A stretch of DNA of 57,576 nucleotides, the filler included, from Basidioascus undulatus (Eukaryota), in assembly GCA_000826855.1 (NCBI GenBank). It is 3 parts of 3 records of this genome, joined end to end, with 100 filler letters (N's around TTAATTAATTAA, not from the genome) between each part and the next. Parts side by side here need not be neighbours in the genome. Positions count along the whole stretch, not along the records: positions 38,458 to 57,576 come from JTLS01000434.1; 2 more parts are not named here. One strand, 5' to 3'. Positions within the stretch are counted from its first letter, which is position 1; every line of letters begins with the position of its first letter. The notes under the pieces are model-generated. The model saw nothing but the letters and a program-made list of their open reading frames with translations, had not been told where the DNA came from and did no database searches. Below are positions 4,744 through 57,576 of the stretch, piece after piece. Both the position numbers and the translations under genes were made by a program.

Positions 4744-5160
4744 CTGGAAGACTTATTGGGCGACAATGACGGGCTTTGGGCGAGATCATACTGTAGGCGG
4801 GCGGGGCTTTGGGTGCGTGGTGGTGGAAGACAAGAGGGATATTCAAGATCGCTGCACCACTTGCGTCGCGCCGGGGGAACGCAACATCCGAAACACACCT
4901 CTGGTAATGTGCGTCCCTCAAAAGACTAATTCTTCTGATATAAACGAGATAAACATACGGAAAGAAAGGAAGCGTTGGCAGTGTCACACACGCCAACTCA
5001 CATTTCAGAAGTCAGGTGCGGCAAGGACTTTTGCACCTCAGAGAACTCTTCAAGTGTCGTTGCTAAACTCATTATCTAAGTCACCACTCCCACTCTAGTG
5101 CGACCCCCCGGAAGCCTTCTGCCATGTCTGTGTCCACATCATCACTAAAGTCAGTCGAAC

Positions 5161-6684
5161 TCACGCCCGCCCTTCCCTCATGATCGCCTTCCAACTCACC
5201 TCCCGCTCGTATCCGCATTTAACGAGCGCCCGGCCAATTGTGTAGCTGACGAGATCCTGCCCCTCATGATCCGTGGGGACGAACCACCATCCCATATAAG
5301 CCATACCGTTAATGGCGACGAGCATGTCCCCTACTCCATCGCCGTCCACGTCCTTCTCGCCCGGCTTCTCGCGGTGCTTGGACTCGTCCCGCGGGACAAT
5401 AAACGAGTCGTTCGAGCGGGGGATGAGGTGCATGTGCGAGGTCGTGAGAAGGAGGTTGTACGACGACCGCTTTTGACCGGCGGGCGGGAGGAGGTCGGCA
5501 GGGAGGCGGGAACGGTGCGTGGTGAGGGTGTGAAGTAGGGACTGGCAGGTTTGATTCAGCTTGGTGAACAGCGAGGAGATGGGTATAGTAGAGGGCTCGG
5601 GGATGCGTGCTACGTAGTGGACATGCTGCGTCGAGAGGAGGTGAGGCTTGCCTGCACTTGAAAGAAATCAGCATTGAGTTGAGGTGAGCCTTGAATCAAC
5701 AAGAACAGCGCAACATAACCGAAAAGAAAAACGAACCGGCTGGATCAAGGGACGACTCTCGGGCGAGCTTTTCGAGCGCAGGCGGTTTGCCTTCCCGGAA
5801 AGGGGCAAACTGCAGGTGAAGGTGCGGCTGACTAGCGCCAGCGAGAGGGCCACCACTGTGAATCCGCACATAGACTGGATTGTAAGAAATATATTCCCAA
5901 TGAGAAGCGTAGCGGAGGTTGAATATGAAGACAGTACGCAACTTGAAGAACAGAAGATCTCATCTCCCTTCTCTGCGTACGCCTGCACGATGCGGTACGC
6001 CGTCAGGAGGTCCTTCCCTGACAGATCGCCTGTTTGTGGGCGGAATGATTTCGGTATGAGCATGATGTGCTCTGTTTACAACCACCCAAGGAAAGTTCAT
6101 CAGTGTCAACTTCAGGCTGGGTGGGCGATTAAAGGCTAGAATAGCAAGCCTGCAAACCTACCAGGAACCATCGCGTGCTTGTTGTTCTATCCCGACAGCA
6201 CATAAGCTCAGCGACAGCTAGGAGGGCATGAAAGATCTAGCAGCGACGTACAAGTACAGCATAGTCCCCCATATCGCAAATGAGCTGGCCTTTCGGGTAA
6301 GGCTTGTCGAAAGGGTCTTTGTCGGGCGGGGACGTGAGGTCCGGCGTGTCCCCCGGCGCGTTCGGCTTCTCGTCGAGGTCGGGCATGATGTGGACGATGT
6401 ACTGCATTTGTAGTCCGTTAGTTAGTTTCGCAGTGCCGCAGGAGTGTACAACGTTCTGGAACAAGGAAGGACTGCTGGGCGCGAAGACTGACCTCGAGGT
6501 TGTCCTCCACGATCGAGTATTCCCGCGTGGACTCGTACACAGTGATGTCTCCAGAATCGAGAGAAGACTCTGGGAACCCTTTTCATTAATCGCTGAAGGA
6601 AAGGTTATGAATGCAAATCTTTCTCGCACGATAGCCCTCCGTGACCCGATCGGGGATCGAAGCGTAATCGAAAGTGTCGGCCAT
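5161..6684 (-). CDS. ATP adenylyltransferase / Ap4A phosphorylase (Apa1/Apa2 family, HIT-like)
   Basis: Spliced protein MADTFDYASIPDRV...KDPFDKP...NNKHAMVP...LIPKSFRPQTGDL...GPLAGASQPHLHLQF...HLIPRS...AINGMAYMGWWFV. The HxHxQ motif is diagnostic of Ap4A phosphorylases. Confidence 0.88.
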
Positions 6685-7401
6685 GACTTTAAGCGAGCGA
6701 GAGAACTGTCCAGTGAGTTTTTCGAAGTGAAGGCTAGTAGGGTGTGTTTCGTGGTAGTAGAAGTTAATGAAGGAGGGAAGAAGCGACGTGATGGTCGTTT
6801 TTGCTGTTGGAACGTCACGGCGTCAACGTCATTGCCCAGCTCCGAGGATGCACCAGCTTGGCGGTGGGGCCTATCGTCTCGAAACGAGGCGATCCATTTG
6901 ACGACCAAAACTTTTGAAACTTCCATTGCTCGAGTGTTCACACCATCGAAAAGGGTAAACATGGTCTTCGCACTTCACAACAGCACCTTGAAAACACAAC
7001 ACAGGAACCGCGAACGAGCTGATGTTGAAACATCGGGAAATCCAGTTAGGCCCAACCGGCATAACCAGTAACGCCTGTGGCTCAACGAGACAAATCATGC
7101 CCAATCAGTAACACTTCTGAATGCTTAAAACATTGGGTTATTGAATTTGGCATGACTTTTATCCTGGGGTATCGTTTACCTTACGGGCAGATGCTCACAA
7201 TGCTCAGTTAAAATTTTGCCAAGGACGTGTCACACTGGCTCGAGCTGTAGCATTACGTGCGGCGGAGGCTGCATTTTCACGTCCCTCATAACAACTGTTC
7301 ATATGCATAATGTATTTATGGAGCATTATGGGTCTTTCAACTTAGGCTCTCATGTTGTAGTCCGGCACTCCGGCTGCCCATGAGGGGAGTGTAAGGGGGG
7401 C

Positions 7402-39664: not shown

Positions 39665-40146
39665 TTAGAAACGTTTCTGAGCCGCCACGGTGGCTCGATA
39701 ATCCAGCAGCAGAACGAAACCAGCGACGAGTGCCGCGGCTGCGATGCCGGAGTCGAACGACTTGAACGGGGCCTCGATGTCTGTTTCACACCAGGTCCTA
39801 GGTGCTCAAGAACCCCTCCATGCTTCTCCCCGTGCCAAACTCAAGAGGCAGAACGCAAGGCTTATGACCGGCCCAAGGGCGACGAGGGGAGCGAGCGCGG
39901 AGAAGGTGGATGATAGGCGCGAGCTCAGCCGAAGCCGGAACGGTTGACGAGGAAGACAATCATTTGGTAGAAAGAGGTCAGCCCCATGCCGCTGAGGAGG
40001 ATGGTGTCCAGGTATCAAAGGCGGTCGCAGGGTAGGGGGCGACTCTCCGGGGGGGTGGTCTCAAAGGTGCGGCGGGTGTACTTGATGATGAAGATGGAGA
40101 GCAGAAGGATGGTGGCGTCGAATGTGAGATTGTAAAGGGCCCCCAT
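39665..40146 (-). pseudogene. disrupted small membrane-protein gene
   Basis: MGALYNLTFDATILLLSIFIIKYTRR...CDRL*YLDTILLSGMGLTSFYQMIVFLV... has in-frame TGA at 40015-40017 and 39925-39927, then further hydrophobic segments (ALAPLVALGPVISL; GIAAAALVAGFVLLL) reached only via a frameshift or intron. Confidence 0.4.
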
Positions 40147-40746
40147 GTCGATGGATTGGGGTAGGGAAGTGGGCGGCGAGGGTAAGAGGGCAATAGGCGA
40201 AGGAAGGCACGGCCGCAACGTACTTTCAGGGGCGGCTGGGCAGACTCAGGTTTCCGACCAGGGTGAGGCATACTGAATACCCAGCTCTCGAGTGCGTCTA
40301 TAAAAAGTAGCTTCCAAAAAGGGGGGAAGGATGTTTTGAACTGCACCAAACTGTTGCGGGCGATGGGGTTGCGCTGCTGCCGTCGGCGCTGTGCACGATG
40401 AACTGTGGGACAGAAGCGACTGTGCTCCTAGGTCGGCCAGAACATCGGGATGACAGTGCAGTGCAAGTCAGGATCCACATCTCCCTAAGGCTTTTGCTCT
40501 ATCCTGCTTGAAGCGCGAAAGTTGCGGGACATAATGCGACAAAGTCGGATGTCAACGTCTCCCCGGGACTGTAAAGACGCCGGGTGACAGAGTGCCCACC
40601 AGGTTAGCTTTGCGTTTCCTAACGGTTCATGTGAGTTTCTGCAAACGTGGGCTTTCCGCACTTGACATTGTGTAGATAGGGATCGAACTGTGTCTGTAAT
40701 TTGGGTCGAAAGGAAGAGTATTAGTCGCACAGCCTCAGTAACTACA

Positions 40747-40818
40747 GCAGCAGTAACTTAGTGGTAGAGTGTCAGATTGCAAATCTGGAAGTCCCCGGTT
40801 CGATCCCGGGCTGTTGCT
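40747..40818 (+). tRNA. tRNA-Cys (GCA)
   Basis: GCAGCAG/CTGTTGC acceptor stem, TCAGA-TTGCAAA-TCTGG anticodon arm, GGTTCGATCC T-loop, U73 discriminator, followed by a T-run. Confidence 0.92.
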
Positions 40819-41180
40819 TTTGTATGCCCACCACCCTTGGCGCTTTGATGAATCAAAACAGTGTCGATCTCATGACTTGTTGTCTTTTTGTAAAGAAAAA
40901 AGGTCCCCTCTGGGCTTGATCGTGCGTCGTTGTTTCCAGCGACGCGCAAGCCTGCAGCTGCCGATGTGCCGTGCGGCAAGATTCCACGTTCTGGCTGACT
41001 AAAGCGAATGACGAAATCCGCGACCAGGGTCTCGGAGCTGACGAGGCCACCACGAAGACCCTATCTCTAGCCTTCTTGTTTCTCAATCTTCACCATCTAA
41101 TAACACTCAGTAAGCCCTAGATGATCGTCGTGTACATCTGTCTAGACGGGCTTAGCTGAATGAAGCCGCGCAGCAGCACC

Positions 41181-42163
41181 ATGGTTCAGCGCATCGTCTT
41201 CTACACCAACAAGGGTGCGTCTTCCTTCTCCTGTGACTGAGGTTGCCCACACCTGAGAATTGGATCACTTTCAGGTTGCCCGTACGCGCAGCGTGGTAAG
41301 CCATCTACGCTCGAGCTTCTCCTTCTCCTTTGTTCACTAACCCACCCCCTCCGGCCAGCCCACATCGCCCTCCTTGAGGCCAACGCCTCCTTCGAGCACG
41401 TCGAGATCGACCTCCAGAACAAGCCGTCCTGGTACAATGAGATCAACGCCGCGCTGAAGGTGCCCGCGGTCGTCTACGGCGGCCCCTTCTCCGCGCCCGT
41501 GGAGAGTGTGCCCGAGGGCGCCGCGTCGATCCCCGAGAGCCTCGTCCTGCTCGACTTCATCGCGGATGTCTTCCCCGACGCGGGCCTCCTGCCTGTGGAC
41601 CCCGTCCAGCGCGCCAAGGTCAGGCTGTTCATTGATGCGGTCGGGAACAAGTTTGGGCCGGCGTGGGCGGGGTGGTCCTTCCAGGGGTGCATGCGCTTGC
41701 TTTTGTCTCCCCTCGTCTTCGCGCTGACTTGCCTCTTTCAAAACCAAAAGCAAGCCCGCCTCTGCAATCCTCGACGCAGTGACGGCGCTCCAGGCGCAGC
41801 TGTCGCGCGAGGGCGACTACTTCCTCGGCTCGACCTTCTCCATCGCGGACATCGCGCTCGCGCCCTTCGTTCAGCGCTTCCGCGCCATGGCGGCCGCGGG
41901 CGTCTGCGCTGGCGATGCGGACGAGGGCAAGCGCGTTCTTGAGACGCTTGAGAAGGACGCGGAGTTTGAGCGCTGGAGGAAGTGGGAGAGCAAGGTGCTC
42001 CGCCAGTCGACTGTCAAGTCTACCTACCCTGGTGTAAGTGCCATGGCGCGAGCAGTGCCGGATAAGATGAATGGAAGGATCTAATAGATGGCGACTGTGA
42101 CAGGACGAGTTCATCGTGGAAAGGTTCCGCACGAAGATCAACCAGCTCAAGGCGCAGGCTTAA
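41181..42163 (+). CDS. glutathione S-transferase, omega-like (CPYA active site)
   Basis: MVQRIVFYTNKGCPYAQRAHIAL...EIDLQNKPSWY...KVPAV...ESLVLLDFIAD...YFLGSTFSIADIALAPF. Confidence 0.92.
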
Positions 42164-42768
42164 GGTGCCGCTCGCGCGCGATGAGGTGGTCTGATTGGTT
42201 GCAGACACTCTTGACATGACGGGAAGGCTGACTGAATGATACAATGTATGGATGCAAATAATTGCTTGAAGCCGTAACGCACGGGCATTCCCCGTCCCCT
42301 TGGGACTGACTCACATTCCGAAAGTTTTGAATCAAGCGAGGTAAAAGACGCAATACTCCGATTGCCTGTATCAGAATCACAGTACCGAATGTTGTGAACC
42401 CCTGCCCACAGATGAGCTCGTATCTTCGCCCTGCAGCTGTGCAGCTGCCAACTTTGTCGGTCTCGTGTCAGCAGCGACTGCAAGTTCGGAGATGGCCCTC
42501 TATGTCATCTCCTGAAACCGTCGACCGTTCCGACTTCATCGCATGCATATCAGTGCATTTAGTATTTCTGCCTGCTGATCAGTCCCATGACAGCAAAGCA
42601 TACAAAGCCGCTGCGAGGACGCTCCATCGTCCCGCCACGCTACGGCAATCCACGCACGGCCCGCTGCACTGTTCCACTGTCCAGTTTGTGGAACTTCCCC
42701 GCATTAACCACCTCACATCTTACCACCATTCTTCGCTCGTTCATCTACGTCGACATTTACCGAAAAAG

Positions 42769-45422
42769 ATGTTTGGAATTCAGCGGGTGCTCACAATGGC
42801 TGCGGCGATGCCAGCTTTGGCGGCTGCAACGGAGGTGGCTCGGCTTCCATGTACGTCGCCAGTCTGTGTAGAAGTCTTCCGTGGTCTTTCTCTGAGACTT
42901 TATTGTGATACGCATGGCTACTAGTCCTGGGCTACAACACTTGGGTGAGGTCTTTTAGCAACAAGGTTAGCCGCCGCTTCAGGTGACTAATCGACTGCTG
43001 AGATTGATTGCAAGAATCGCTACGGAGTATGACAAACCGATTCACTTGGGCGCCAGGCCTTCTGGCTGACGGGGCTAGCAATCGCAGTGCGACATCAACG
43101 AGACTTTAATCGTCGAAACGGCGCAGGCAATGAAGGACCTGGGTTTACAGGACCTCGGATACAACTACGTCAATCTCGGTGAGATTTTTCTTGAGGGATA
43201 GTCTCCTTTGTCCCTCTATATCATGACTCCGGTATGATGCTCATCTGCTGTCGCAGATGACTGCTGGTCCCTCAAGAACCGGTCCGCCGACGGCCGCCTC
43301 GTTCCCGACCCCATCAAGTTCCCGTCGGGCATCGCGAATCTTTCAAGCGTGATACATGGCATGGGCTTGTGAGTTCCCAAAAAACTCCAACCCAGGAAGA
43401 AGATTCCGAACAAATTTTGATTCTTGTGTACCTCTCAAACAGCAAGCTCGGCATTTACGGTGATGCAGTGAGCGCGAACCTAGGAAGTTTTATGGCACAA
43501 GCAGCTAGCTGACTAGGCTATTCAAGGGATATGGGACTTGCGCTGGGTATCCGGGATCGTTCGGATACGAGCAGGTCGATGCAGAGACTTGGGCCGGATG
43601 GGGTGTTAAGGTGCGTGTTTTGCATTTCACAAAATCATGAGATGTTGGAATGGCACTCACCTTCCCTCCGCAGCTTCTCAAATAGTGAAGCGTACTTTAA
43701 ACATGATCCCCCCGGCATTTCTCACCTAACTCTGAACAGCGACAATTGCTACATTCCCGAGGACAGAGTAGTCAAGGGGAACGTGCGGTCGCGTGAGCGC
43801 AATGTTGTTTCTCTAAAGGAAGGGCAGCGCTAACGAGGTGAAGTTCAGGCTATATTCGTAAGATGGACTTAGCTGGCGTGCAGGGCTATGGATTACAACT
43901 GGGAGTCTATCTTCTTTCGCAGGTATGAGGGACGCCCTGAACAACGTTGCGGAACAGTCGGGAGCAGACCCCATAGTTTACAGCCTCTGTCCTTGGGGTA
44001 TGCTCTTCTCAATTGTCTCTATAGAGTCTCATTCATCTACCTTCTATCCTCCTCAGGCTGGGATGCGGTGTGGGAATGGGGCAAAGAAGTCGGCCAATCG
44101 TGGCGTGTGAGCCTTGCTGATCCTCTCTCCTTGTGCCACCGCTGACCACTCCTCTTCCAGACCACCGGCGACATCAACCCCTGGTGGGGTTCTTTGGCTT
44201 CAATCATCAACCGGTAGGAGTCACTCTGGGGTTAGAACACTCTCCACTCGCAAGTCCAACATGCGTTTTAATAAGGAACTCGTTCATCACTGCCTACGCC
44301 GACTTCGGAGCTCATAACGATCTCGACATGGTGGGTTCTGAATAATCTCCATATCCTGTGTAGCGTTATGACATGGTCCACAAACAACCCAGCTCCAAAT
44401 AGGAAACGGCAACCTCACTGTCGCAGAAGCCCAGTGTATTTTTCCTCAAGCACTACCTCACCTGCCATTGGCTGACACCCTCCCTGGATTACAGCACACT
44501 TCACGGCATGGGCATTCATGAAGTCTCCTCTACTGATTGGAACCGATGTGCGTCGCGTCGTTGAGTTGCAGCACGGTTTCTGATGCCTTCCCGTAGATGT
44601 CGGCTCTCGCTCCGGAATTCCTGGAGGTCTTGTCCAACCAGGAGATCATTGAGATCAATCAAGGTACCAGATGTGCTGTGTTTTTGAAAGAGTCCGACTT
44701 AATGAAAGATTTTCCAGATCCGGTTTATGGAAAGTCCATTTCGCCGTTCCGCTGGGGCATCAACGTGAGTTCTCAAGACTTCGTCACGCCGCCCACGCTG
44801 CTAACTGATCCATTTCGTTAGCCTGACTGGACTTGGAATGAGACGTGAGCCACTGTACCGCACTCTCTTATTTGATTGTGCAAAATTGAGTTAAGTATCC
44901 CTTGACTGCAGGCACCCCGCACAATACTGGTCCGGTCAATCACAGAACGGGACGATCGTGATGCTGGTAGGAGCGAAGCTGCTCTCGCCACTCCAGGATT
45001 TTCCCCAACACATCCTTTATATGCCCCCATTCAGATAAATACACTCGACACTCCCGCCACCCTCTTCTTCAACCTCACCGAGTCTCCCTGGTTGCTGGAT
45101 GGATACGAATACGCCGTCCGCGACCTCTGGGCACACAAAGAGCTCGGCTACGCGCTCCGAAACTGGACGCAAGAGCTTCCACCACACGGAGTTGCTGCGC
45201 TCTTGATGCATGATCCCATCGAAGAGGTGCGCATTGCCCATATTTCTGACCTAGAATGTCCCCGTTGATGTTTGCTTGTTGACAGCCGGCGGACACTTGG
45301 CCTCTGTGTGCGGAATGGTTGTAAGTTGTTCAATCTCCCATTAGGAGCAGGAGATAGGCAGTATTACTGACAATGAGACCAGCCAATGCTCACTCCCCAA
45401 TCTCACGCGTCTGGGCTTGTGA
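42769..45422 (+). CDS. secreted alpha-galactosidase, glycoside hydrolase family 27
   Basis: Signal peptide; [42 protein letters not shown] (nucleophile), SWRTTGDI (acid/base), [26 protein letters not shown] and EINQD. Confidence 0.94.
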
Positions 45423-46165
45423 AGAGCGAAAAATCCAACTCTTTGCGCGGTACCAGTGCACCAGCCGAACTGCTCGCACTGCTCCATGTATTATTTTTTG
45501 AGTCCCGGTGAATAAACAATGCACTGTAAAGAACAGATGGTTACAGTCGCGAACAGACCGACTCGCGCATTACAATAAGCATTGCCATAATCAGTGTCCC
45601 GCCTGTATGATCAGCGTCCACCCTGCTTCCGCTGTTGCAATGATGTTTGTACCAAACGGAGGCAGAACAACGACAACGGGGAGATTTTGAGCTGGGAAAT
45701 AGAGGGGATATTAAGCCCGTGGTGTTGGGTCAGGAACAAGAAGCACCAGGTTCAACGTCTCCTGGGTCAGCGCGATGTTTCTCAGCCCTGGGGCCTGGCG
45801 AAAGGGTAGCCCCTGCAGTGTGACAATGCTGCAAGGCTATATACTGTAGTATTTTCTTACCATTTTAAAGTGTCAACGGACCTAATTTGCGCCGTTCTTT
45901 CGCGGCTGAGACTGCCAGTGTCGCGCGGGGGGTCGGTGAGGTGATAGACAACGCGAAGAGCCTGTGCCTATCAGAACCGCAAGTCTCTATCCCAGTATTG
46001 AGGGAAGCGAATTAGCCTTCATATTCGTTCGACAAACGTACGCTCAATAGGCAACCCAGATCATATACAGGGCATCTGGGTCGCTTGCCGACATTGTTCT
46101 TCACCCACTCCAACCTTCCACCTCTCCGACAGAACTTCTCCCGACTACCACGTCAAGCCACCACC

Positions 46166-46830
46166 ATGCTCTCTTCCGCTATTCTTGTGCTCTGTGGCGC
46201 CGTCGCCCTGGCCTCCGCCGCACCGCACGCTCCTCGCTCCTCGGCCGGCACCACCTGCAAGTTCGTCTGCCCGCACCAGGACAACGGCGGATTCAAGCTC
46301 GGCCAGAAGGACGAGGCAGGTTAGTCCTCATATCCGACTGATTATATGGAAAAATTCTTGAAGTTAGTGATCTTATTATGTCGGTGTCCGCAGCGAACCC
46401 TCTCTTCTGCTCCTTCCCTACCCGGCCGGACTAGGACCCCGACCAGTTCTACTGCAAGTACAACGCCGTGTGTCCCACGCTACCATCCCCGGACGTCCCC
46501 AACCTCCCTACTCACAGTGCACCCATTCGAAATGAAAATCATGTCACCGGCGCCCAGGTAGAGGACCACGATGAGCACCTCTGCCCCGCCGGCGCGCAGG
46601 GGAGCTGCAGCCTCGGTCGGAGGGCGCAAGAAGGAACTGAAAGGAAGCCCAGAAGACCGCAGGGGTCTCAAAGAGAAGAACGGCGCGGGGAGCCTGAAGC
46701 GTCCACTGGAGATCCCGGAGGATCGAAGGGCTCTGATGGAGAAGGACGGGGCTTGGCGCTTGAGCCATCCGCTGCAGGACGTCCCCGAGGAGCTGGAGAT
46801 GATGTCATGAAGGCGCAGCGCAAGGTGTAG
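46166..46830 (+). pseudogene. small secreted cysteine-rich protein with a repeat tail, disabled
   Basis: Signal peptide MLSSAILVLCGAVALASA and Cys pattern CKFVCP...LFCSF...FYCKY...HLCP...C. In-frame TAG at 46432-46434, intron-2 acceptor reads CAT (46540-46542), and a frameshift precedes the repeat tail. Confidence 0.7.
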
Positions 46831-47594
46831 TTGGGATCTGCGAGGGAAATGGGAGGAAGAGGAACAAGAGAGGTGCTTTATGGGGTTGATGCAGAGGGGG
46901 AATGGTAGCTTGTACCTGAAGGAGGAGAAATGAAAACGAAGGTGCGAGCAATGTTGTTGCGTTGTTGCACAATCGCCTGCACTATACCCTATCTACGTGC
47001 AGAAAAAACCTTCATACGAGCGCCGGATTAAGAAAAACATCACAGGTTTGCCGAAGGGTACCTTTCAACTGCACGTCCTCTGAAGTCTCTGTAATAATGC
47101 TTGCCCTCACATCATGATGTGGCTCTAAGTACGGTGTTGCGCATTTGCGGGAAGATTAATGGAACAGATGCCATTGAAGTTACTGGTTCTGTCTTGAGCA
47201 TATCGGAGGTCAGCGCCCCCTGACTCTCTGCTCGCAGCTCGCAGCTCGCAGCTTTTGAGTTGGACTGTGAGGTGGTATGCCCGCTGTATGCCTGAGGGTG
47301 AAGGTTCGGAACTCGTCCGTAACCATGGGAGAGCTGCAATGCGTGTGCTACGTGTCAAGTGTCAAGTGGAACTGCATTGACTTTGTGCTGGTACCCTGTA
47401 AACCAGAGGCATGCACGCTTGAACGCGTGCAGCGCTCAGACGCCGAGTAATAGGGCGGAGAGCATGTGAAAGTCATCGATAGCGCAGGCGCAAACCCAGG
47501 TACACAGGATCCCCGTTCATCGATTTCCGCTCTCATCGCCATATCTCCCCGGCTGCGCTCAACAGAGCTTCCGAGCCTCATATTACCTTGCCTA

Positions 47595-48259
47595 TCATAA
47601 AGAGAACTCGAGCCCTGTCCCCTCCTTCCAACTGTCAACCTTTCGCTCTTCCGTTTCTGCAGGCCAAGGATGAGGCGACTCACGGTTCCCCGTGTAATCC
47701 CTCGCAAAGAACCGCTGCGGATACTCTCTTCCCTGTGCCCCACCTGTTCCCTCACCCCCCATCCTGCCTCAGCCTCCTCCCTCCCTCTCTAACCCTTCCC
47801 CCAGCGAACAGACGCACTATTGACCTCCCCCGGCTGATCCGCCTCCCTCGGCGCCGCCTCCCCCCCCTTCTGGAAGGCGTCCCACACGCGCTGCCTCAAG
47901 CTCAGCAGCGCCTCGCCCGACTCCAGCTTGAAGCACGGGTGCCGCTTGGAGGATGGTTGGAGCGGCGTGGAGGGGTCGAAGGAGATGTGAATTTGCTGCC
48001 CCGAGGTGGAGATGTTGAACCACCGGAGCGTGTCTTTTTGGAGGGAGGGCACCGGCTGGGGTGGGGGAGGGAGGAAGAGGGAGGTTAGTGGGGTGGGAAG
48101 GGAGGAAGGGGAGGAGGAGAGGAGGCGGACGGAGGGTTGTAAACCGAGCAGGACGCCGTAGAACTCGTCTGCGAGGTGCAGCGTCCCCGCAGGGACGGAG
48201 AGGTTGATGTGCGCTAGGGAGGCGATGCCTTGGGGTTCGACGGTGGGCAGCGCGGTCAT
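47595..48259 (-). CDS. glyoxalase/bleomycin-resistance (VOC) family protein
   Basis: LAHINLSVPAGTLHLADEFYGVLLG...WFNI...QQIHIS...RHPCFKL...RFFARDYTGNRLEFSL-TGA. Confidence 0.88.
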
Positions 48260-49156
48260 AGTTGGGAAATGTCGGGAGGAGTAGGGGGAAGGAGGAGGTA
48301 CGGCAGAGGGGGGGGGGCGATGGCGACATGAAGGGGGGAAGGGCCGGGCCGAGGTGCCGGGTGGTGGTCGGGTGTTCGAATCGGGATGTGGTAGCATTTA
48401 AATACCTGTTTTCCTCAAGTGTACATTCAAGGTCATTTGGCATACTCTCTCGCGACGTGAAGCTTAGGTTGGGGCTGTCGTATATGGCTTTTTGCATTTA
48501 TACATCGCTGTTCGCTGCTGCAGCCTGCTGCACGCGAGCGCGCCCTTTTCCCGCGCTGCCCTCACGCTCTCCCCCCTCCGCCCTCATCGCCCGCCTCGCC
48601 CACCTCATACGCACCACCTACAGCTCCCTTTCCCACACACCCCAGTACCCTCATTCTCGCACATCCAGCGTCTTCCCCGTAAAGTATGCTGCCCCTTCCC
48701 CACGGTCTTCGCCCCCACCCCTCAACTAAACCGGACTTCCCTTAGGAACCCCTCCTCTTCCAGCATGCCCCCCAGGCGATACACGTACCACCCCAAGCCG
48801 CAGGCCCTTCTTTATCTTATTTAAGTGCACGGAAGTGCGACACGACATGCACGTCCGAGCTCGTTCCGACCCCTCCCTCGACCCTACCAGTCATCCTATT
48901 TCCCTGCATGCGATGGGCGGATACGCTTGGTCCAAGACGTGTTTGTTGAGGAAGCATTCGGAGGTCTGCAAACACACGCCCAGAAAAAGAAGGAGATGCC
49001 TGGTCCGAGTCTCGTGAACATGTAGAGGGAACATTAGCTGATTCTTGCAATCTGAGCACAGGGCAGGGACCAGGCAGGATACACAGTGGCGGCAGTCGGG
49101 AACGGGCCAATCTGCTGTTTCTCGACTGGTCCACAAGGGTCTGTACGCGTTATTAT

Positions 49157-49690
49157 TTAGTCTCTGAGGAAGGCCTCCGTAAGCCTCAGTGCGGTAGCCT
49201 TCGACGTGAGCTGGGGCACCGGAGGGGCCCTCAGGACTCTGCCTTGCAACGCTCTCGGCTTGGGTACTGGGAACCTTGACGGGGGTTGGACTACCAGGCC
49301 TCTGCCCACTGTCGACCCTACGGCGGCGGTCCTGTCGGTATCCAGGGGGCACGCTGTGCATATGCGTACCCGACGGGGTGGTTCGTCCGCTGACCTGGCT
49401 TGGTAAGTTACCACTTTCACGGAGGCTCCGCAATATTCACATAGGTCTTGAGGGGGCATGACATCCATGCCCGCACAACCCCCTAGTTGTGCACCCCCCG
49501 TCACCCCCAAAGTAAGGGCGCCCCTCAGGGCGCGTCCTGCACCGCGAGCACTGACCCAAGATCCGTTAAGTATGAGGGTGCAAGCTGCAAGTCGGCGGCA
49601 TGCTCGAGGCGTGAACGCGAGCGTGTCAACCGGCACCGTACGTTTTAGGATTTTACCCGAAGGATTATCTTGTAGCACAGTCCTGGACAT
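49157..49690 (-). CDS. intronless 177-aa ORF carrying a TFIIS/Rpa12/Rpc11-type C-terminal zinc ribbon; probably a fragment of a foreign element
   Basis: CEYCGASVKVVTYQARSADEPPRRVRICTAC (49349-49441) is CxxC-x23-CxxC with the RSADEP acidic hairpin. There are no introns, no TFIIS domain I/II and no N-terminal Rpb9-type ribbon. Confidence 0.75.
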   Translation of the reverse strand: MSRTVLQDNPSGKILKRTVPVDTLAFTPRACRRLAACTLILNGSWVSARGAGRALRGALTLGVTGGAQLGGCAGMDVMPPQDLCEYCGASVKVVTYQARSADEPPRRVRICTACPLDTDRTAAVGSTVGRGLVVQPPSRFPVPKPRALQGRVLRAPPVPQLTSKATALRLTEAFLRD

Positions 49691-50001
49691 GTTCTTGCCT
49701 GAACGGTGAAGTCGTTGCTAAGGGCGGTGAACATACTGACAGCCAGGGAAGGGATGCAGGCGATTGACGCTCACTGCACCCCGAACTCAAGTATTGTGCA
49801 TGTGCAGACCTCGACCTCATGAATTTGCCAACTCGGACATACATTCCAGAATCCTGTATAGTAGAAACTTCCCCTTCTGTTCGCTCTTCCACCTCCCCCT
49901 CACCGCCATGGTCGTGAATGTCTATCTACAATAATACTACTTCGATACAGTTCCGAATGTGAGCACATCAAACCACAATCTGCCGACGCAGCTTTTCACA
50001 T

Positions 50002-51518
50002 TCACACCCTCTCCGCCCCGTTGTCACCTCCACCCTGGCCTGCACCCGGGAGGTTCTTCGGAGCCTGCTGCGACGGCGACCCGATGGCCGTCTCCTCGCT
50101 GTGCCGCTGCCGCTCAGCTGCGTTCCCCCGCAGTGCACGCCCAACGTTGGAAACACCGGGGATCCCCAGAGTGCGGCGCGGGCTCTCCTCGAGGATCTCG
50201 GACTCTTGCCCGGGGTTGATTTCCCTGTTTGGTGAGGTGTGTTGGTGAGGCGAGGGGAATGGATGTTGGGGAGGTGGTGGTGGGGGAGGGCGCACCAATA
50301 CTTCAGGCTCGTCAGGGACATGTAGATTGCCGTTGCAAGCAGCGAGCCGATCGTGGGGCCGACCCAGTAGATCCAGTGGTGGCCGGGGAAGCCTGGAAAT
50401 TTTCTGCGTCTCAATTTACTACCCGCAGCGTAAGACTGCAACGCCTCACCAGCGATGACCGATGGACCAAACGAGCGAATACTATTGACGCTTGGGCCGG
50501 TATAGGGTCCGCCTGGCGGGGCATGATCAATGAGTGACTTGGCTTGAGGTAAGGGAGAAATACAGAGTCCATGGCACTTACCAATGATGTGGATCACGAA
50601 GAGCGTCAGCCCGATCCCGACCGGCGCGAGGAACGACGACTTGTGTTTCTCAGCCGCGAGCATGAGCACCACCAGCACAAGGGCAGCGGTCATGAAAGCC
50701 TCCAGCCAGACGCCCTTCAAGGCACGAGTTAGTAGCTCTCAATGACAGAAGGCGCAAAGGGTGAGACGAACCTGCGCCAGCCCCGTACCGTACCCCAGCT
50801 TCGTGTTGAACTTGACAGGGCCGGGAATGAGGCCTTCCAGGAGCGCGGCGGCGACAATTCCGCCGATGATCTGAGGAAGAGGTAAGGATTGAGTTGTTTT
50901 TTGAAGGGACAAGTAGAGATGTCAAGGGTGAGCGGACTTGGGCGATGGTCATGAAGAGGAAACGAATGGGCGAGATGGCGCCGCAGAGCATGAGAGCCTG
51001 AAAGGGGAGCCAGGGCGTCAATGGAGAGTAGAAATGTAAAGTATAAGAATACAAACCAGGCCAATCTGAATGTTGAAGATGGAGCCCGTCACCTACCGCA
51101 GGTTTCTCGTCAGCGCCTGCAAACCGTGCAGATATTCAGTCACAGCCCACCCGGTAGAAGCACCAAGCAGTGACCTATCCCTCTCTCTGCATCAGCTATT
51201 CATCCCCAAGACTACCATTCCCTTGAAACATACCAGAAGCGACAGCCCCATCGCCGCCGCGAGGTTGATGAGCTGCCCCGGCGTGGGGACGCCGCCCGAG
51301 CCGGGCGGGTAGCCCTGCTCGGCCGCGCTCGAGTCCGCGGCTGCCTGGATCCCACCCAGGCCTAGGAAGAGGAACATGACTGTTCCAATGAACTGCATCC
51401 TCCCGAGTCAGCTTCCCTCTGCTCACTGCTATAGGGCTACGCCAGGAAGACGAACCTCGAACAAGGCCGCCTCGAGGTCGAGCTTGAACTTGCTCCAGTT
51501 CGAGATTGCGGGAGGCAT
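50002..51518 (-). CDS. aquaporin (MIP family) with non-canonical NPA boxes
   Basis: [82 protein letters not shown] and HWIYWVGP. Confidence 0.92.
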
Positions 51519-52466
51519 GATGCTTGATGTGCGTTGGAAAAGATATAGATTGCAGTTGTGCAGTGTAGTACCAGCGTATGAGAAGCGAGGTGTGACAGGC
51601 AACGCAGCGTAGACAGCGATGAAAAGCCGTTACAAAGGTTCGTCGTGCCAAGATGCGTTCAACTATGAAGAATCGCGAAGAAAGAAGGAGGTCAGGCACT
51701 GGTAGATCGCGCTTGTTTACGGCAATCGCAGAGTGGGGGCTTCGTTATCAAAGCTCTGCATCCTGGATGCGAGCTGCGAGTAATCCAATTTGGCTCAAGG
51801 TGCAAGGTGCCGGCTCCTGCACACCCTTGCGATACCGAGTGCGATACCGAGAGCTGGATAGCAGGACGCAGCGAAGGAAGACAGTGTTTGGGAGGTGCTG
51901 AAAGCATGTGAAAGTGTCCTGGATCAATGGGTTCCAGCGTAATCAGGCAGACGGAGCGTCAAGTGACGCCGCGGTGGTCGATGGCAGACGCTTATGTCCA
52001 AAGAGTTGTTTCGGATAGCTCGTGCCATTGAACACAATCTTTTTGGACTTCCCAGCTCTCCTTGTATAAAGTTATCCCGAGAAGTTTAGAGGAAGGATTG
52101 GAACTGCCGCGGCCTGATTGATGGAAGTGGTGAAGGGTGAAAGGCGGCTGCGCGCGGGCATGCCGTTGCAGCACCCGTTGTCTGACACTTTCAGAAGGCA
52201 ATTGTCGAAGAGCGCGAGGCATGCCTATGCGGCAAAGTCTGTGTTGTTTGTTGCTTGTCTGTAGCTTGCTCTAGGCCTGCTGTACGGCACAGGCGTCGCG
52301 TTTCGGCATGCATCCTGACGCTCGTGGCTGTCTCGGAGGCAATGCTTGTGAAGACCCAATAGGAAGGGAGAAAGATATACCGAACGAAAATGGGCGCGAA
52401 AGGCAACCAGTCAGATTCGAACCGAGGGTACTGCCACGACTTCGGCTAGAGTCGCGTTGAATCTTC

Positions 52467-53466
52467 TCACTCCTGCACAAATACGAAGGCCTGCAAATAA
52501 AGTAAGCTGTCTATACTGGAGAGCTACCATAAAGAAGCCTCTTACCAGCTCATTCACTACCACTTCCTTGTTTGACAAGCGAAAAGAATCCCGCGTTTTG
52601 CCAACGTCGCCGGTGTAGTACACAACATTACCGTAGGGGAGAATCTGTATACAATGCAATCGGTCAGCCATTCCATTCACCAAACATAGACTCACAGGGT
52701 ATTAGAAGATTTGGCTGCTCACAAGAGTAGGTTATTGAGGCTAGCGAGGGATTTCAAGCTGGCTGACGATTCACATCCATGAAGGTTGATCAATTGTTCA
52801 CGTAGAACTGACGGGTGGTGGATAGGATGTTTGTAAACATGTTCATCAAGACAGGAAAAAGGGACTGCAACTGGCAGATGTACCACGGTTGTCTCGATGT
52901 AGGCGTTGGTGGCCCAGGTTGCGGCGCTCCAGCGGGAGCTAGGGATGATCAAAAGAAAAACAGACCCCAACTGGATGTGTGGAGACCAATGTGACATGAG
53001 ACAATTGATTCCATATACGTTGAAGGGTGATGGTAACTTGCAACGAAGACACTGCGTGAGGCGATCTAACCCGAAAGGACATGGCCAAACTTACTAACTT
53101 GTACAGGCCAGGTCCGATATGACCGTAGAATCCCGCCCTGATAACCATGCGCGCGTTGATTCCCTATGCCTCACTATGTCAATTCTCCCCTCAAGGACAA
53201 AATATCTGAACGTCAGCCTGCAACTCATCTTGCGGCCAATCTCAATAGAGCCACCGTCCGACGAAGGGGTAAATGAATATTGGTCCGCTGCTGCCTTCGA
53301 GGTGGCTACATTGTTTGACTTAAGGTATCCGAGCTGAACGCCTTCTTTTCAGTAGATAAAAATTTAACCTGATACGTTGCACTTAAGGGCTCTGCCCCCG
53401 GACTGGCGAGAGCGCCAAGGGAGGATATCAACGAGAGGCGAGTATGGCTAGGAAGCGGGTGAGCAT
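52467..53466 (-). pseudogene. decayed small secreted protein gene
   Basis: Signal peptide MLTRFLAILA/SLISSLGALA is broken by a 1-nt frameshift and one donor reads ATGAGT. Exons LGYLKSN..., TPAGAP.../YIETTV, LREQLINLHG, VVYYTGDVGKTRDSF and AFVFVQE-TGA resemble a basidiomycete secreted beta-rich family. Confidence 0.45.
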
Positions 53467-53851
53467 CGTGCAGCAAGCGCTTGAGCGGTGTTGTTTGAAG
53501 GAGGGTGTTGAGGTGCTGTGTCGCGTGAAAGGTAAAGGGGCAAAAGTACCGGAGGACACTCGGTCTTAAGAGACACACAGGCGAGCGAGAGCTCGACGAG
53601 CCCAGAGAAGATGAAAGCAGCTGGCGCCTTCGCAAGACACCCGAAGGCGCTGCCTGCGGCTTGACCGACCGTCGAATTATGCCTGGCTTGGGCTGAATGC
53701 AGCCTCAGCTGTTTATACAAGTCTCCGGTACTTTTCCTGTATGCCGGGCCCTCGCTGAGCGCCCCACCTCTATCTTGTTCATTCAGCTTTCAGTCAGCCT
53801 GGGCAGTGACAGTCCCTATTCAATCCTGTCTCTTTTCACGGCAACGGCGAC

Positions 53852-53891
53852 GGAACCGTCTGTATCCATGTGGAACCGTCTGTATCCATGT
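53852..53891. repeat. perfect 20-bp tandem duplication GGAACCGTCTGTATCCATGT x2
   Basis: Copies at 53852-53871 and 53872-53891. Confidence 0.9.
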
Positions 53892-55267
53892 TTGGTATGC
53901 TAAACTTATATACCTCCCGCGTTGCGGAGCATCGATACTTGCTCTGCGTTACTCTTGACAGTGCGTCTCTGTCCGCCCGCAACGAACGTCGTTCTGATCA
54001 TTGATCACTCTTCCGCACTTTCTCTTTCCAGTCCAACCCCGGCTATCCGGAAATTGCAACCAAAAAAATTACATAGCTAAACTTTCCATTGCGGTGTCGT
54101 TCAAAGCTTTGCAAGCCGCAGTGTTGATGATGGTCACGTAGGACATGCGGAGCACATACGTGGAGCTGGTCCGAAGAGTCTTCGACTAGGAGGAGAATGT
54201 GGAGGGTGGTTGTGGGAAGTTACGTGGAGCCTTTGGACTGCAGGACGAGAGTCTGCGCGAAGTGTAAGGAAAGCGATGCAGGGAACAACGGAAGCCATAA
54301 GCTTGTCAACGCTGGAGGGCGTACGGCAAGCCCATAATGATTCCGTCGATGAGACGGGCAAGCCGGACAACAGCCATCTCCCATGTGGCAATTTGATAAC
54401 CAATGGTTTATATCACCCCTTCTTCCTGGGAGTACCTGTTTCCAGCGCACGCTCCCAACAGCCTCGCACAGTTCTGCAGGAGACGAGACGGCGACCAGAA
54501 GAGCGAAAGCTTCGGCAATAGCTGAAGATTGGAAAAAAATCTTAGTTTGTCAGTATGAGAGCATGTTCAAGATACTCGTGTTCTCTAGGCGGGTTTCGTA
54601 GCAGTCGCAGCGAACCCGGCGAACATACTCGAATGGACTGTCGTCGACAGCGCTCCAGTGATCCAGATTATCGCACCTTCATACTTGAGAACTTGCACTT
54701 GGCGGGGTACGGCAGTTGAACCGGCCCCAGCATTTTTAATGGTCTGTGTAACCGGACAGTCCACGTTGGCTTGCCGCGAGCGTCTCTTGAGATCTCATCC
54801 CTCATCCGCACTTCCTGCAAATGCCATGCTCGCTCGTCATCTAATTCCTCTCAGTAGTCCAATACACACGACGCAAGCCCACAAGTCATACAAACCCAGA
54901 CGCAGCCCAAGGAAAAATCTAAAAAAAATCTAAAAATTGGAAAGGTGTTTCCTGGGGAGAAAGACGCTTGGTGGGCGGCTTCCGCATCTCGATTCACGAG
55001 GCTGCACCCAGGGTGATGGCAGGTGCGCCAGTCCGAAAGGCTCCAGCATTTCAGAGCCATTTGGGCTTGTTTGTTGGGAAGGTGAGTGTTGTGGACTGTG
55101 TGGTGTGTACAAAGAAGCAGGTCAGTGGCGAAGCCTGGTTGTTTGTCGCCTGTGGAAAACCCCGACCGGCCATGAGCAGACGCGTCCGGATCGCGCGTAA
55201 AGTGGCGCGACACGACTTTGGTTCTCCCCCCTCCATCCATCCGGCTCTCCTTCTCCCTCTCACCTAG

Positions 55268-56384
<1,117 letters not shown>

Positions 56385-56927
56385 GGAGGGAGGGCGACGG
56401 GGACGCTGCTTCGTTGACTTCCCCCTTTCTCTTTGTGCTGTCTTCTATTGTTGCTCTGGACATTCGCGATATACCCGCTTTATTTGCATCTGCGGATTCG
56501 ACTGTCACCCTTGCCTTGAGCAGTCGTCGGCCGGGAACCGCTTGCTACAAACTGGCCACGGCCTGGCCATGACCCCCTCTCCTAGACGGACCGATCCTGG
56601 CGTCTTTTCACTCTATTTGGAATAACTTAGCCTTGCAGACGTGGATCCCATACGGAATACAAGTTGTGAACGCGCCGCAAGCGCGCCGGCGATTAAATGG
56701 CCCACGCGTTTGATGTTATTGTCACGCTTGATGCGACGCGCGCGTAGGTCCGTCCTTCAACCACGCGGGGCAGACATCCCCTCTCGCCTTCTCTCTTCGT
56801 TCATCTCAACGCCCATCGCAATCTCGACCAGGCCCAACCTCAAGACTCAAGACTCACAACGTATACTTACATCTTCTCTTCCATCGACACAGAAATCGAC
56901 ATTGACATCGACATCGACACAACGCCC

Positions 56928-57576
56928 ATGCCGCCCCGCCCCTCCAGCGCCGCCCCCTCAGCGGGCCCATCGAGCAGCCCGACACCCGCGTTCCTCGCCG
57001 AGTACGAGTCGGTCGAGATTATTGGCCAGGGGTCTTTCGGGAAGATCCGCAAAGTGCGCAGGAAGAAGGATGGCGTCGTGGGTTGCTCTCCTCTCTCCAG
57101 GGGAAGGGGTGGGTGGTGGCTGAGAGGGATGGTGGGGTGCGCGGGGAACAGATCTTTGCGAGGAAGGAACTCGACTTTGAGAAGATGGGCGATAAGGATC
57201 GGAAGCAGATTGTGGCGGAGGTGTAGGTCGTCATTTGGTTTCGTGGGGAGGCGGGAGAAGGGGAGGAAGGGATGCTGATGCGGGTGGGGGGGAAAGCAAC
57301 ATCCTCCGCGAGCTGTCGCATGCCAACATCGTCGCGTACCACGAGCGCGTGCGTCCCATCTCTGCTTACTGAGCATACTGGGGAGAGACCGGCTGATGGC
57401 GCGAGGATGGACAGCACGTCGACCGCGACGGCGGGATGCTCTACATCCTCATGGAGTTCTGCGGCGGCGGCGACTTGCAGTCCGTGATCAAGAACTGCCG
57501 ACGAACTGGGTGGGTCCCCCCTCCCCCCCTCCTTCCCAGCCGAGAGCGCATCCCGACCTCGCGATCCGAGCTCCTG
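56928..57576 (+). CDS. NIMA-related (NEK2/Kin3/Fin1-like) Ser/Thr protein kinase; 3' end runs off the window
   Basis: YESVEIIGQGSFGKIRKVRRKKDGV, IFARKELDFEKM...KQIVAEV, NILRELSHANIVAYHER and LYILMEFCGGGDL. Confidence 0.92.

Follow-up and report, generated by a model that had tools for sequence, protein, structure and literature searches.

The subject of this report is a small open reading frame (ORF) in the fungus Basidioascus undulatus (assembly GCA_000826855.1) that carries a zinc ribbon of the kind found in the transcript cleavage factor TFIIS. The ORF lies on the minus strand at positions 49157-49690 of a 57,576-nucleotide (nt) stretch of DNA, herein called the window, within the part that derives from JTLS01000434.1. 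The reading that we favor, with a probability of about 0.65, is that this ribbon represents the 5′ portion of a gene carried by a rare and undescribed family of double-stranded DNA (dsDNA) virus-like elements, preserved in a fungal chromosome as an endogenous viral or plasmid-like fragment that is probably a relic. The parent protein would be a capping enzyme of ~700 amino acids (aa), of the type encoded by nucleocytoplasmic large DNA viruses (NCLDVs), with the TFIIS-like ribbon as its N-terminal module. The parent gene would adjoin the genes for the element's own reduced two-barrel RNA polymerase (RNAP).

The translated ORF contains DLCEYCGASVKVVTYQARSADEPPRRVRICTACPLDTD (also given as MDVMPPQDLCEYCGASVKVVTYQARSADEPPRRVRICTACPLDTDRT), as quoted in an earlier reading made from the DNA alone (the sequence-only reading), and the 177-codon ORF with its CxxC/QARSADEP/CxxC ribbon proved to be real and correctly placed. 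Pfam family PF01096 (Zn_ribbon_TFIIS) matches residues 84-114 (E value 2.8e-5; 24.3 bits versus a curated cut-off of 21) and is the sole Pfam family found on the ORF at E ≤10. All four ribbon cysteines are invariant in a 17-row alignment (A4), and every invariant residue of that alignment is kept in the ORF: C84, C87, Q97, R99, A101, D102, E103, C111, and C114. In TFIIS, the RSADE hairpin is the loop that reaches the polymerase active site. A structure of the ORF product predicted with AlphaFold2 (AF2) from 17 aligned sequences has predicted local distance difference test (pLDDT) scores of 81-91 at residues 81-120. Residues 1-77 are unstructured in this model, with pLDDT 40-55 and no secondary structure across codons 1-74. 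Structural searches with the model return weak rows throughout (Z 2.0-2.7) that are consistent with a ribbon and do not discriminate among ribbons. For example, TFIIS (1tfi) aligns with a root-mean-square deviation (rmsd) of 2.0 Å over 38 residues and a VIA-align Z of 2.3, which is weak and within noise for a domain of ~40 residues, and the RNA polymerase III subunit C11 (7a6h_I) aligns at 2.1 Å over 42 residues with a similarly weak Z of 2.2 for so tiny a domain.

The identity of the ribbon emerges more sharply from its relatives. An exhaustive phmmer search with the ORF against 1.84 billion representative proteins returned 10 proteins at E ≤1e-3 (best 5.2e-7, none at 1e-10). Every one of the ten carries the ribbon variant Y-Q-x-R-x-A-D-E followed by C-x-x-C-P/L-L/I, and half of them are proteins of 570-746 aa with the ribbon at the extreme N terminus (residues ~3-75). 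Generally, the ribbon of these relatives begins 2-30 residues after the start codon. The best match, P0001, shares 25 identities with the ORF over 40 residues (63%). A family profile made from the relatives' N termini, with the window sequence excluded, scores the ORF at 65.2 bits (E 5e-22; aligned residues 80-127, envelope residues 63-163), and tblastn of the ten relatives against the six frames of the window gives E values of 8e-12 to 9e-9 at the ribbon site only. Further family members include P0012 and P0013, from a profile search, and four loci (L001-L004) from a metagenome scan; the ribbon-fused capping-enzyme family as named here comprises P0001, P0003, P0006, P0008, P0012, P0013, and the ORFs of L002 and L004. 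A scan of IMG/VR with the family alignment gave 20 pattern matches, none of which was confirmed. A word-indexed search with the whole ORF against proteins of 97-310 aa produced 424 candidates, none at E ≤0.01.

These searches bear on two simple explanations. Long spurious ORFs are common in the window, and a spurious GC-rich ORF might be imagined to spell a ribbon-like motif by accident. However, a library-wide E value of 5.2e-7, an independent profile match of 65 bits (E 5e-22), and the 25 of 40 identities with P0001 leave almost no room for chance. It is also very improbable that the ORF arose by retrocopying, or by duplication and decay, from the host's genes for TFIIS, Rpa12, Rpb9, or Rpc11, even though its ribbon falls within the Pfam family of theirs and is intronless. 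Among the 1.84 billion representatives, no canonical TFIIS, Rpa12, Rpb9, or Rpc11 matches the ORF at E ≤1e-3, as against 10 ribbons of the capping-enzyme type, and the score of the ORF is 65 bits with the family profile versus 24 with the Pfam model. Two canonical ribbons, P0018 and P0019, were compared by profile score over ~40 alignable residues, and reach 25-33 bits per domain on the same family profile. Furthermore, the last CxxC of the ORF is followed by PLD, as in the element family, rather than by the ...RWKH ending of canonical P0019. The TFIIS_M central helical domain is absent, and 63 residues follow the ribbon. The ORF also holds a single ribbon with no second CxxC...CxxC pair, unlike Rpa12, Rpb9, Rpc11, and archaeal TFS, which are ~110-125 aa long with a C-terminal catalytic ribbon and would have a second ribbon N-terminal to it. 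A phmmer comparison with PDB chains found no TFIIS-family chain and gave two unrelated weak matches only (PchD, E 0.02; OGG, E 0.53). Canonical matches to TFIIS, Rpa12, or Rpc11, which would have counted against the sequence-only reading, are therefore lacking at E ≤1e-3, and its expectation of a patchy distribution agrees with a family so rare that 10 matches occur among 1.84 billion proteins.

Some of the relatives depart from the common pattern. The ribbons of P0012 and P0014 exceed the Pfam threshold for Baculo_LEF5_C (24.0 and 26.5 bits versus 24), scoring equal to or better than they do for PF01096, which links this ribbon variant to the ribbon of baculovirus LEF-5. In P0009 (570 aa), the first ribbon CxxC is missing (CTNYNN), the YQSRAADEPP and second CxxCPLD segments are kept, and the insert ahead of the guanylyltransferase is much longer than in other members.

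Pfam recognizes only the ribbon in the long relatives, not the catalytic domains, which are instead revealed by conserved motifs and by fold. Ten residues (K259, D261, G262, R264, D309, E311, D379, G380, K393, and K395 in P0001 numbering) are invariant in ten aligned full-length or near full-length members. We take these columns to be the covalent nucleotidyltransferase motifs I (KxDGxR), III, IV, and V of capping enzymes and ligases. A motif for binding S-adenosylmethionine (SAM), (I/L)D(I/L)G(T/S)G(D/E/T)GQ, lies downstream in all full-length members; Pfam matches to methyltransferases are sub-threshold, and this domain is supported by fold. When a profile of five family sequences was compared with PDB chains, the matches were limited to TFIIS-type ribbons, all of them weak (E 0.048-3), and a single methyltransferase (E 2.4); sequence alone did not reveal the catalytic domains. 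The AF2 model of P0001 has a mean pLDDT of 70, with 75-92 in the catalytic parts and 25-69 in residues 50-200. Its best match in the PDB is the vaccinia virus capping enzyme subunit D1 (4cke_D, E 1.1e-16, ~790 aligned columns), followed by the guanylyltransferases of the chlorella virus PBCV-1 and of cells and by the cap N7-methyltransferases of vaccinia virus, African swine fever virus (ASFV), and human. Against the viral structures of BFVD, the best match is the Pithovirus sibericum capping enzyme (E 7e-19), followed by ASFV NP868R, marseilleviruses, and an entomopoxvirus. The long relatives are thus predicted to be NCLDV-type mRNA capping enzymes of ~700 aa, with guanylyltransferase and cap N7-methyltransferase domains behind an N-terminal TFIIS-like ribbon. 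In the model, a beta-rich region between the ribbon and the guanylyltransferase is possibly a triphosphatase.

The genes that surround the relatives point to the kind of element from which they come. Two metagenome contigs were examined: 17.3 kb of a 31.4-kb contig with 40% GC (L004) and 11.5 kb of a 23.9-kb contig with 46% GC (L001). Both are densely packed with intronless ORFs on both strands. On L004, the capping-enzyme gene abuts an ORF for an Rpb2-like polymerase subunit (Table 1) that matches archaeal Rpo2 and RNA polymerase II Rpb2 among PDB chains at 1e-8 to 1e-6, and whose nearest ESM-Atlas clusters are RNAP beta subunits with Nucleocytoviricota as the commonest phylum. A family B DNA polymerase (PolB) lies at the end of this contig. 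On L001, an Rpb1-like ORF divergently precedes the capping-enzyme gene. It found nothing among PDB chains at E ≤0.01, and was assigned by its match to PF00623 and by HGDFDGDE, the motif that holds the catalytic aspartates in beta′ subunits. L001 also encodes a 741-aa PolB that is closest to the archaeal, pol-alpha, and poxvirus type B polymerases. The sequence-only reading had proposed a captured fragment of an uncharacterized element or virus equipped for its own transcription, and had looked to intronless homologs beside non-canonical RNAP beta and beta′, capping-enzyme, or methyltransferase genes as support. Such homologs were found on L001 and L004, where the nearest relatives are capping enzymes beside Rpb2-like, Rpb1-like, and PolB genes.

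Other features of these contigs are worth recording. The polymerase subunits are unusually small, at 806 aa for the Rpb2-like and 615 aa for the Rpb1-like protein; NCLDV and cellular beta and beta′ subunits have ~1150-1500 aa. One ORF of L001 has weak, sub-threshold matches to AAA/STAND NTPases. On L004, a 513-aa ORF (L004:11442-12983, plus strand) without a significant Pfam family starts with ...IIIGQNPYPTN..., which to us is reminiscent of the GQDPY motif of uracil-DNA glycosylases. Just upstream of the capping-enzyme gene, a 371-aa ORF (L004:3993-5108, minus strand) has a weak F-box-like N terminus (E 0.14, below threshold). An origin from the methyltransferase of a polymycovirus, a double-stranded RNA mycovirus, had also been entertained; it was dropped, as the relatives sit on DNA contigs of 24-31 kb, with genes for PolB and RNAP as neighbors.

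Within the window, the family is represented by a small part of such a gene. When the ten relatives and every stop-to-stop frame of 80 aa or more from L001-L004 were compared with the window by tblastn, matches were confined to 49199-49462 and covered only the relatives' first ~100 residues. The same searches of the 57.6-kb window found no match to the guanylyltransferase motifs KxDGxR, DxE, DG, and KxK, and no SAM-dependent cap methyltransferase, polymerase, or other element gene. Judged from these alignments, the window copy is a fragment that holds the first ~50-90 codons (~150-270 nt) of a capping-enzyme gene and not a complete member. As a ribbon only, it cannot cap RNA. On the downstream side, the alignments of P0003, P0006, L001, and L002 extend to 49259-49199, within the weaker homology to the relatives' linker. 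The extension of more than 60 aa that the sequence-only reading had described does follow the ribbon, but its first ~13-50 residues still align with this linker. On the upstream side, the alignment of P0001 begins at its residue 12, facing window residue 77, and no match from protein searches or from tblastn of the relatives covers codons 1-74. Thus, the ~80-aa N terminus seen earlier as unrelated is indeed without relatives, and it is at most putatively translated; the start of the relatives corresponds to in-frame Met75 and Met78. These 74 residues are probably upstream read-through rather than part of an architecture.

The length of the frame carries little weight. Stop-to-stop frames that reach 150 aa or more number 85 in the window, and ATG-initiated ORFs of 177 aa or more number 20. 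When the window is block-shuffled 20 times, 0-7 such ORFs still appear (mean 2.6). Because of these numbers, an unbroken frame of 177 codons is not remarkable here, and intronlessness is not evidence in itself, contrary to the emphasis that the earlier reading had placed on it. The long open frame of the ORF is probably in part a matter of chance.

Three other records contain related ribbons that are fungal or look so. A 177-aa hypothetical protein of Puccinia triticina occurs in two assemblies, each time on a contig of ~8 Mb, and the two versions differ at one residue. It aligns with full-length P0003 over residues 1-71 (46% identity), beyond which the similarity is lost. In a metagenome-assembled genome of Acidomyces richmondensis, a protein of 245 aa runs from the ribbon through KPDGER, with 30% identity to P0013 over 271 columns. 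Finally, the 1.6-kb soil contig L003 has a ribbon ORF adjoining an ORF with a 2EXR domain, which we take to be a typically fungal family. The occurrence of ribbon-only ORFs in at least two named fungal records might suggest that capture ran in reverse, such that the elements took the ribbon from a fungal ribbon-only family and fused it to a capping enzyme, in which case the window ORF would belong to the donor family, either as a member or as a pseudogene. We regard this as quite improbable. The homology passes beyond the ribbon into the capping-enzyme linker in both the window and Puccinia copies, and that of Puccinia begins at an element-type start codon. The Acidomyces copy runs on to guanylyltransferase motif I, and the window copy lacks host codon usage. 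Because of this linker homology and the reach of the Acidomyces copy to motif I, the fungal copies look like truncated forms of a long gene.

Whether the fragment in the window still has a function is a separate matter. Host exon segments, as represented by 679 codons under Pfam matches, have a GC content at third codon positions (GC3) of 0.81, and their leave-one-out codon log-odds are positive in seven of eight segments (+0.06 to +0.71; the aquaporin segment is at -0.23). The ORF has a GC3 of 0.59 (0.51 in the upstream part and 0.58 in the ribbon) and a codon log-odds of -0.30 per codon. The GC content of the intergenic gap, 0.57, is close to the GC3 of the ORF. Furthermore, the exact protein, whether started from Met1, Met75, or Met78, is absent from a collection of 15 billion predicted proteins. 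Because the fragment is isolated between host genes and its codon usage matches the intergenic background, we consider that it is probably a non-functional relic.

A different possibility is domestication, whereby the host expresses a ribbon peptide of ~100 aa, probably from Met75 or Met78. Its TFIIS-like hairpin would lodge in the secondary channel of an invading element's polymerase as a decoy that competes with the capping enzyme of that element, conferring immunity of endogenous viral origin, or else the peptide would modulate a host polymerase. None of the zinc ligands has been lost, nor has the QxRxADE hairpin, the ribbon is modeled with confidence (pLDDT 81-91), the frame is open well past the homologous part, and short ribbon forms recur in fungal records (P. 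triticina in two assemblies, and L003). Nevertheless, codon usage and GC3 follow the intergenic background rather than host exons, the flanking residues are unstructured in the model, and the protein is absent from public protein sets. The recurrence of 5′ fragments can be explained as an ascertainment effect of the ribbon search. On balance, we consider domestication unlikely. A narrower idea, in which ribbon-only ORFs provide the host with decoys to plug the secondary channel of the polymerase of the element, is improbable.

Several observations nonetheless weigh against a relic of an element-derived capping-enzyme gene. The proposed lack of present function draws on composition, and all nine invariant and two near-invariant ribbon positions of the family are intact in the ORF. 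Such conservation would be expected if the insertion is very recent or if the ribbon is under selection, and is harder to square with prolonged neutral decay. Likewise, the ORF core is as close to P0001 (63%) as true family members are to one another. The frame remains open for 83 codons upstream of Met75, for which rough base-composition arithmetic gives a chance of ~0.07. The direction of transfer, from element to fungus, is a presumed one, and the fungal copies were found by a ribbon-based search, such that the pattern in which all are 5′ fragments is biased by ascertainment. Regarding the source family, the modeled region proposed as a triphosphatase is the stretch with pLDDT 25-69 (residues 50-200). 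Moreover, in 28.8 kb of L001 and L004, about half of each contig, Pfam recognized none of the Nucleocytoviricota hallmarks sought (double-jelly-roll major capsid protein, A32 packaging ATPase, D5 primase-helicase, and VLTF3), and thus neither a capsid nor a packaging gene, although PolB, RNAP beta and beta′, and the capping enzyme are present. Because none was recognized in the parts examined, the donor is best called a dsDNA virus or virus-like element.

If the fragment does derive from such an element, the intact parent protein suggests a way in which capping and transcription could be joined. Structures of RNA polymerase II with TFIIS show that the ribbon enters the polymerase pore and delivers two acidic residues to the active site. 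Since the zinc ligands and the Q-R-A-D-E residues are invariant across A4 members, the ribbon of the family may keep a TFIIS-type function. Its invariant Asp-Glu hairpin would enter the secondary channel of the element's polymerase, as the ribbon of TFIIS does. In this position, the ribbon would tether the capping enzyme to the polymerase, and it would also stimulate the cleavage of backtracked transcripts. In vaccinia virus, the ribbon protein Rpo30/E4 and the capping enzyme D1-D12 are separate proteins within one polymerase complex, and the baculovirus capping enzyme LEF-4 is itself a polymerase subunit. The sequence-only reading had envisioned a free-standing, TFIIS-like accessory factor, a view that gives way here to a ribbon that is the N-terminal module of a capping enzyme.

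The positions of the ORF, its parts, its host neighbors, and the relevant genes of the two metagenome contigs are collected in Table 1.

Table 1. Features of the ribbon ORF, its host neighborhood, and metagenome loci L001 and L004. Positions count along the window unless a locus is named.
Feature	Position	Strand	Basis or remark
Whole ORF, 177 codons, ATG to TAA	49157..49690	minus	Sequence reading
Zinc ribbon proper, Cys84, Cys87 ... Cys111, Cys114	49349..49441	minus	PF01096; AF2 pLDDT 81-91, two beta strands
RSADE acidic hairpin, Arg99-Glu103	49382..49396	minus	Codons read; conserved in A4
Core homology, aa 80-127, to N-terminal ribbon of capping-enzyme family	49310..49453	minus	Profile 65.2 bits; tblastn E 8e-12
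Weaker homology into relatives' post-ribbon linker, aa 128 to ~163	49202..49309	minus	tblastn and envelope of the hidden Markov model
In-frame Met75 (49466-49468) and Met78 (49457-49459), where relatives' N termini begin	49457..49468	minus	Sequence and alignment
Codons 1-74, without relatives, probably outside the acquired gene	49469..49690	minus	No covering match; GC3 0.51
Upstream neighbor: last exons of host aquaporin (MIP) gene	49968..50738	minus	PF00230 E 7e-17
Downstream neighbor: host ORF, 202 aa	47789..48397	minus	ORF reading and Pfam; no Pfam family at E ≤0.01
L004 capping-enzyme gene	5087-7255		Abuts Rpb2-like ORF
L004 Rpb2-like ORF, 806 aa	L004:7257-9677	minus	RNA_pol_Rpb2_6 (PF00562) E 1.1e-13
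L001 Rpb1-like ORF, 615 aa, HGDFDGDE	L001:8115-9962	minus	RNA_pol_Rpb1_2 (PF00623) E 2.4e-6, above cut-off
L001 fused NADAR and RNase H ORF	L001:4900-5919	minus	Pfam, NADAR E 1.8e-50 and RNase H E 1.5e-28; adjoins PolB gene

The ORF stands alone in a gap of ~1.7 kb (48260-50002) between the aquaporin gene and the downstream ORF, the latter of which, by eye, has a sequence reminiscent of a glyoxalase/VOC-type fold. In the aquaporin frame, a short GT...AG intron is apparent at 50226-50298 (minus strand) after ...LKYW, and is followed by the frame of an ORF at 50002-50298. As read from the sequence, the aquaporin stop codon would lie near 50002, ~310 nt upstream of the ATG of the ribbon ORF. No copy of the gap (48260-50002) exists elsewhere in the window, and no direct or inverted repeats flank the ORF within 40000-57576, where a single family of 32-nt repeats is unrelated. 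There are also no transposon domains among the Pfam matches of the window ORFs. The other ORFs with such matches are ordinary fungal genes, namely those for chitin synthase, cytochrome P450, aldehyde dehydrogenase, glutathione S-transferase, MIP, thymidylate synthase, ThrE, and ATP adenylyltransferase. The ESM-Atlas clusters nearest to the P450 are mostly from Basidiomycota, which is a lead only. At the far end of the window, positions 1-1000 form its most GC-rich stretch (72.5% GC versus 50-66% elsewhere). Several long open frames overlap there without a Pfam match in positions 1-1000, and an exon of the ThrE family follows at 900-1649.

The association of large DNA viruses with fungi is a recent discovery, and is so far confined to zoosporic and other early-diverging lineages. 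The fragment offers a concrete sequence handle on such elements in what appears to be a basidiomycete chromosome, and its sister fragments in the records of a rust and a dothideomycete hint that these elements have met higher fungi. Perhaps the copies in the window, P. triticina, and Acidomyces, together with the fungal-looking L003, are the footprint of an unrecognized lineage of dsDNA viruses or virus-like elements that infects, or once infected, Dikarya. Such a lineage would be NCLDV-like, with a reduced RNAP (beta ~806 aa, beta′ ~615 aa) and a ribbon-bearing capping enzyme. This broader proposal is tentative, and we judge it to be rather doubtful at this time. Regardless, fungal genomes and soil metagenomes can now be searched for donors with the family profile. 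The fusion of a ribbon to a capping enzyme beside a minimal two-barrel polymerase also suggests that capping and transcript cleavage or proofreading might be coupled via the secondary channel. In practical terms, the ORF is better annotated as a viral-derived fragment than as a host transcription factor.

Endogenous viral fragments are already known as a kind, and the donor group and the fusion of ribbon and capping enzyme are apparently undescribed; in the fungal group concerned, moreover, footprints of this sort are not established. Searches of the literature on TFIIS with capping enzymes and on endogenous viral elements (EVEs) of giant viruses in fungi turned up neither the fusion nor the element group, and a preprint on Polinton-like viruses makes no mention of a capping enzyme, RNA polymerase, or TFIIS.

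Like the TFIIS-type ribbons of TFIIS domain III, the C-terminal ribbon of Rpa12, Rpb9, and Rpc11, archaeal TFS, poxvirus Rpo30/E4, and the C-terminal domain of baculovirus LEF-5, the ORF has four cysteines and a Q-x-RSADE-P hairpin. Unlike those proteins, the source family carries its ribbon at the N terminus, fused to a capping enzyme, with no helical domains or second ribbon before it. Its signature also differs in having Y before the Q and CP(L/I)(D/N) after the last cysteine pair. The relatives share with the NCLDV capping enzymes (vaccinia virus D1, ASFV NP868R, and those of pithovirus, marseillevirus, and mimivirus) the order of folds, in which the KxDGxR, DxE, DG, and KxK motifs are followed by a Rossmann-type cap methyltransferase. 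Their length of ~700 aa falls short of that of D1 (844 aa) and of NP868R (868 aa), and they carry the added N-terminal ribbon.

The DNA polymerases of yeast linear plasmids are protein-primed. These plasmids, or virus-like elements (VLEs) of the pGKL2 type, are likewise dsDNA elements of fungi with a reduced two-barrel RNAP and a D1-like capping enzyme, according to the portions of PMC6211774 and PMC13348850 drawn upon here, and excerpts of the latter state that many of them encode their own DNA polymerases (PMC13348850). In the part of PMC6211774 that treats the VLE polymerase, this enzyme is argued to be without the rim helices that bind TFIIS, and no element-encoded TFIIS is described there. 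The PolB of L001, which is of the archaeal, pol-alpha, and poxvirus type, differs from the polymerases of yeast VLEs, and the donor contigs measure at least 24-31 kb. An origin from a yeast killer plasmid was rejected, given the different type of PolB and the lack of a described element-encoded TFIIS for VLEs in that portion of the literature.

A parallel for the window itself is found among the EVEs that large DNA viruses have left in fungi, where viral-type genes likewise lie among host genes (PMC10640383, PMC13533422, both as excerpted). These include a viral region of 1.5 Mb in Rhizophagus, as given in the excerpt of PMC10640383, and Mycodnaviridae in zoosporic fungi, in connection with which the excerpted text of PMC13533422 asks why Dikarya are uninfected. 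In these excerpts, the known fungal EVEs belong to early-diverging fungi and form long multi-gene regions, whereas the window holds a single fragment of ~150-270 nt.

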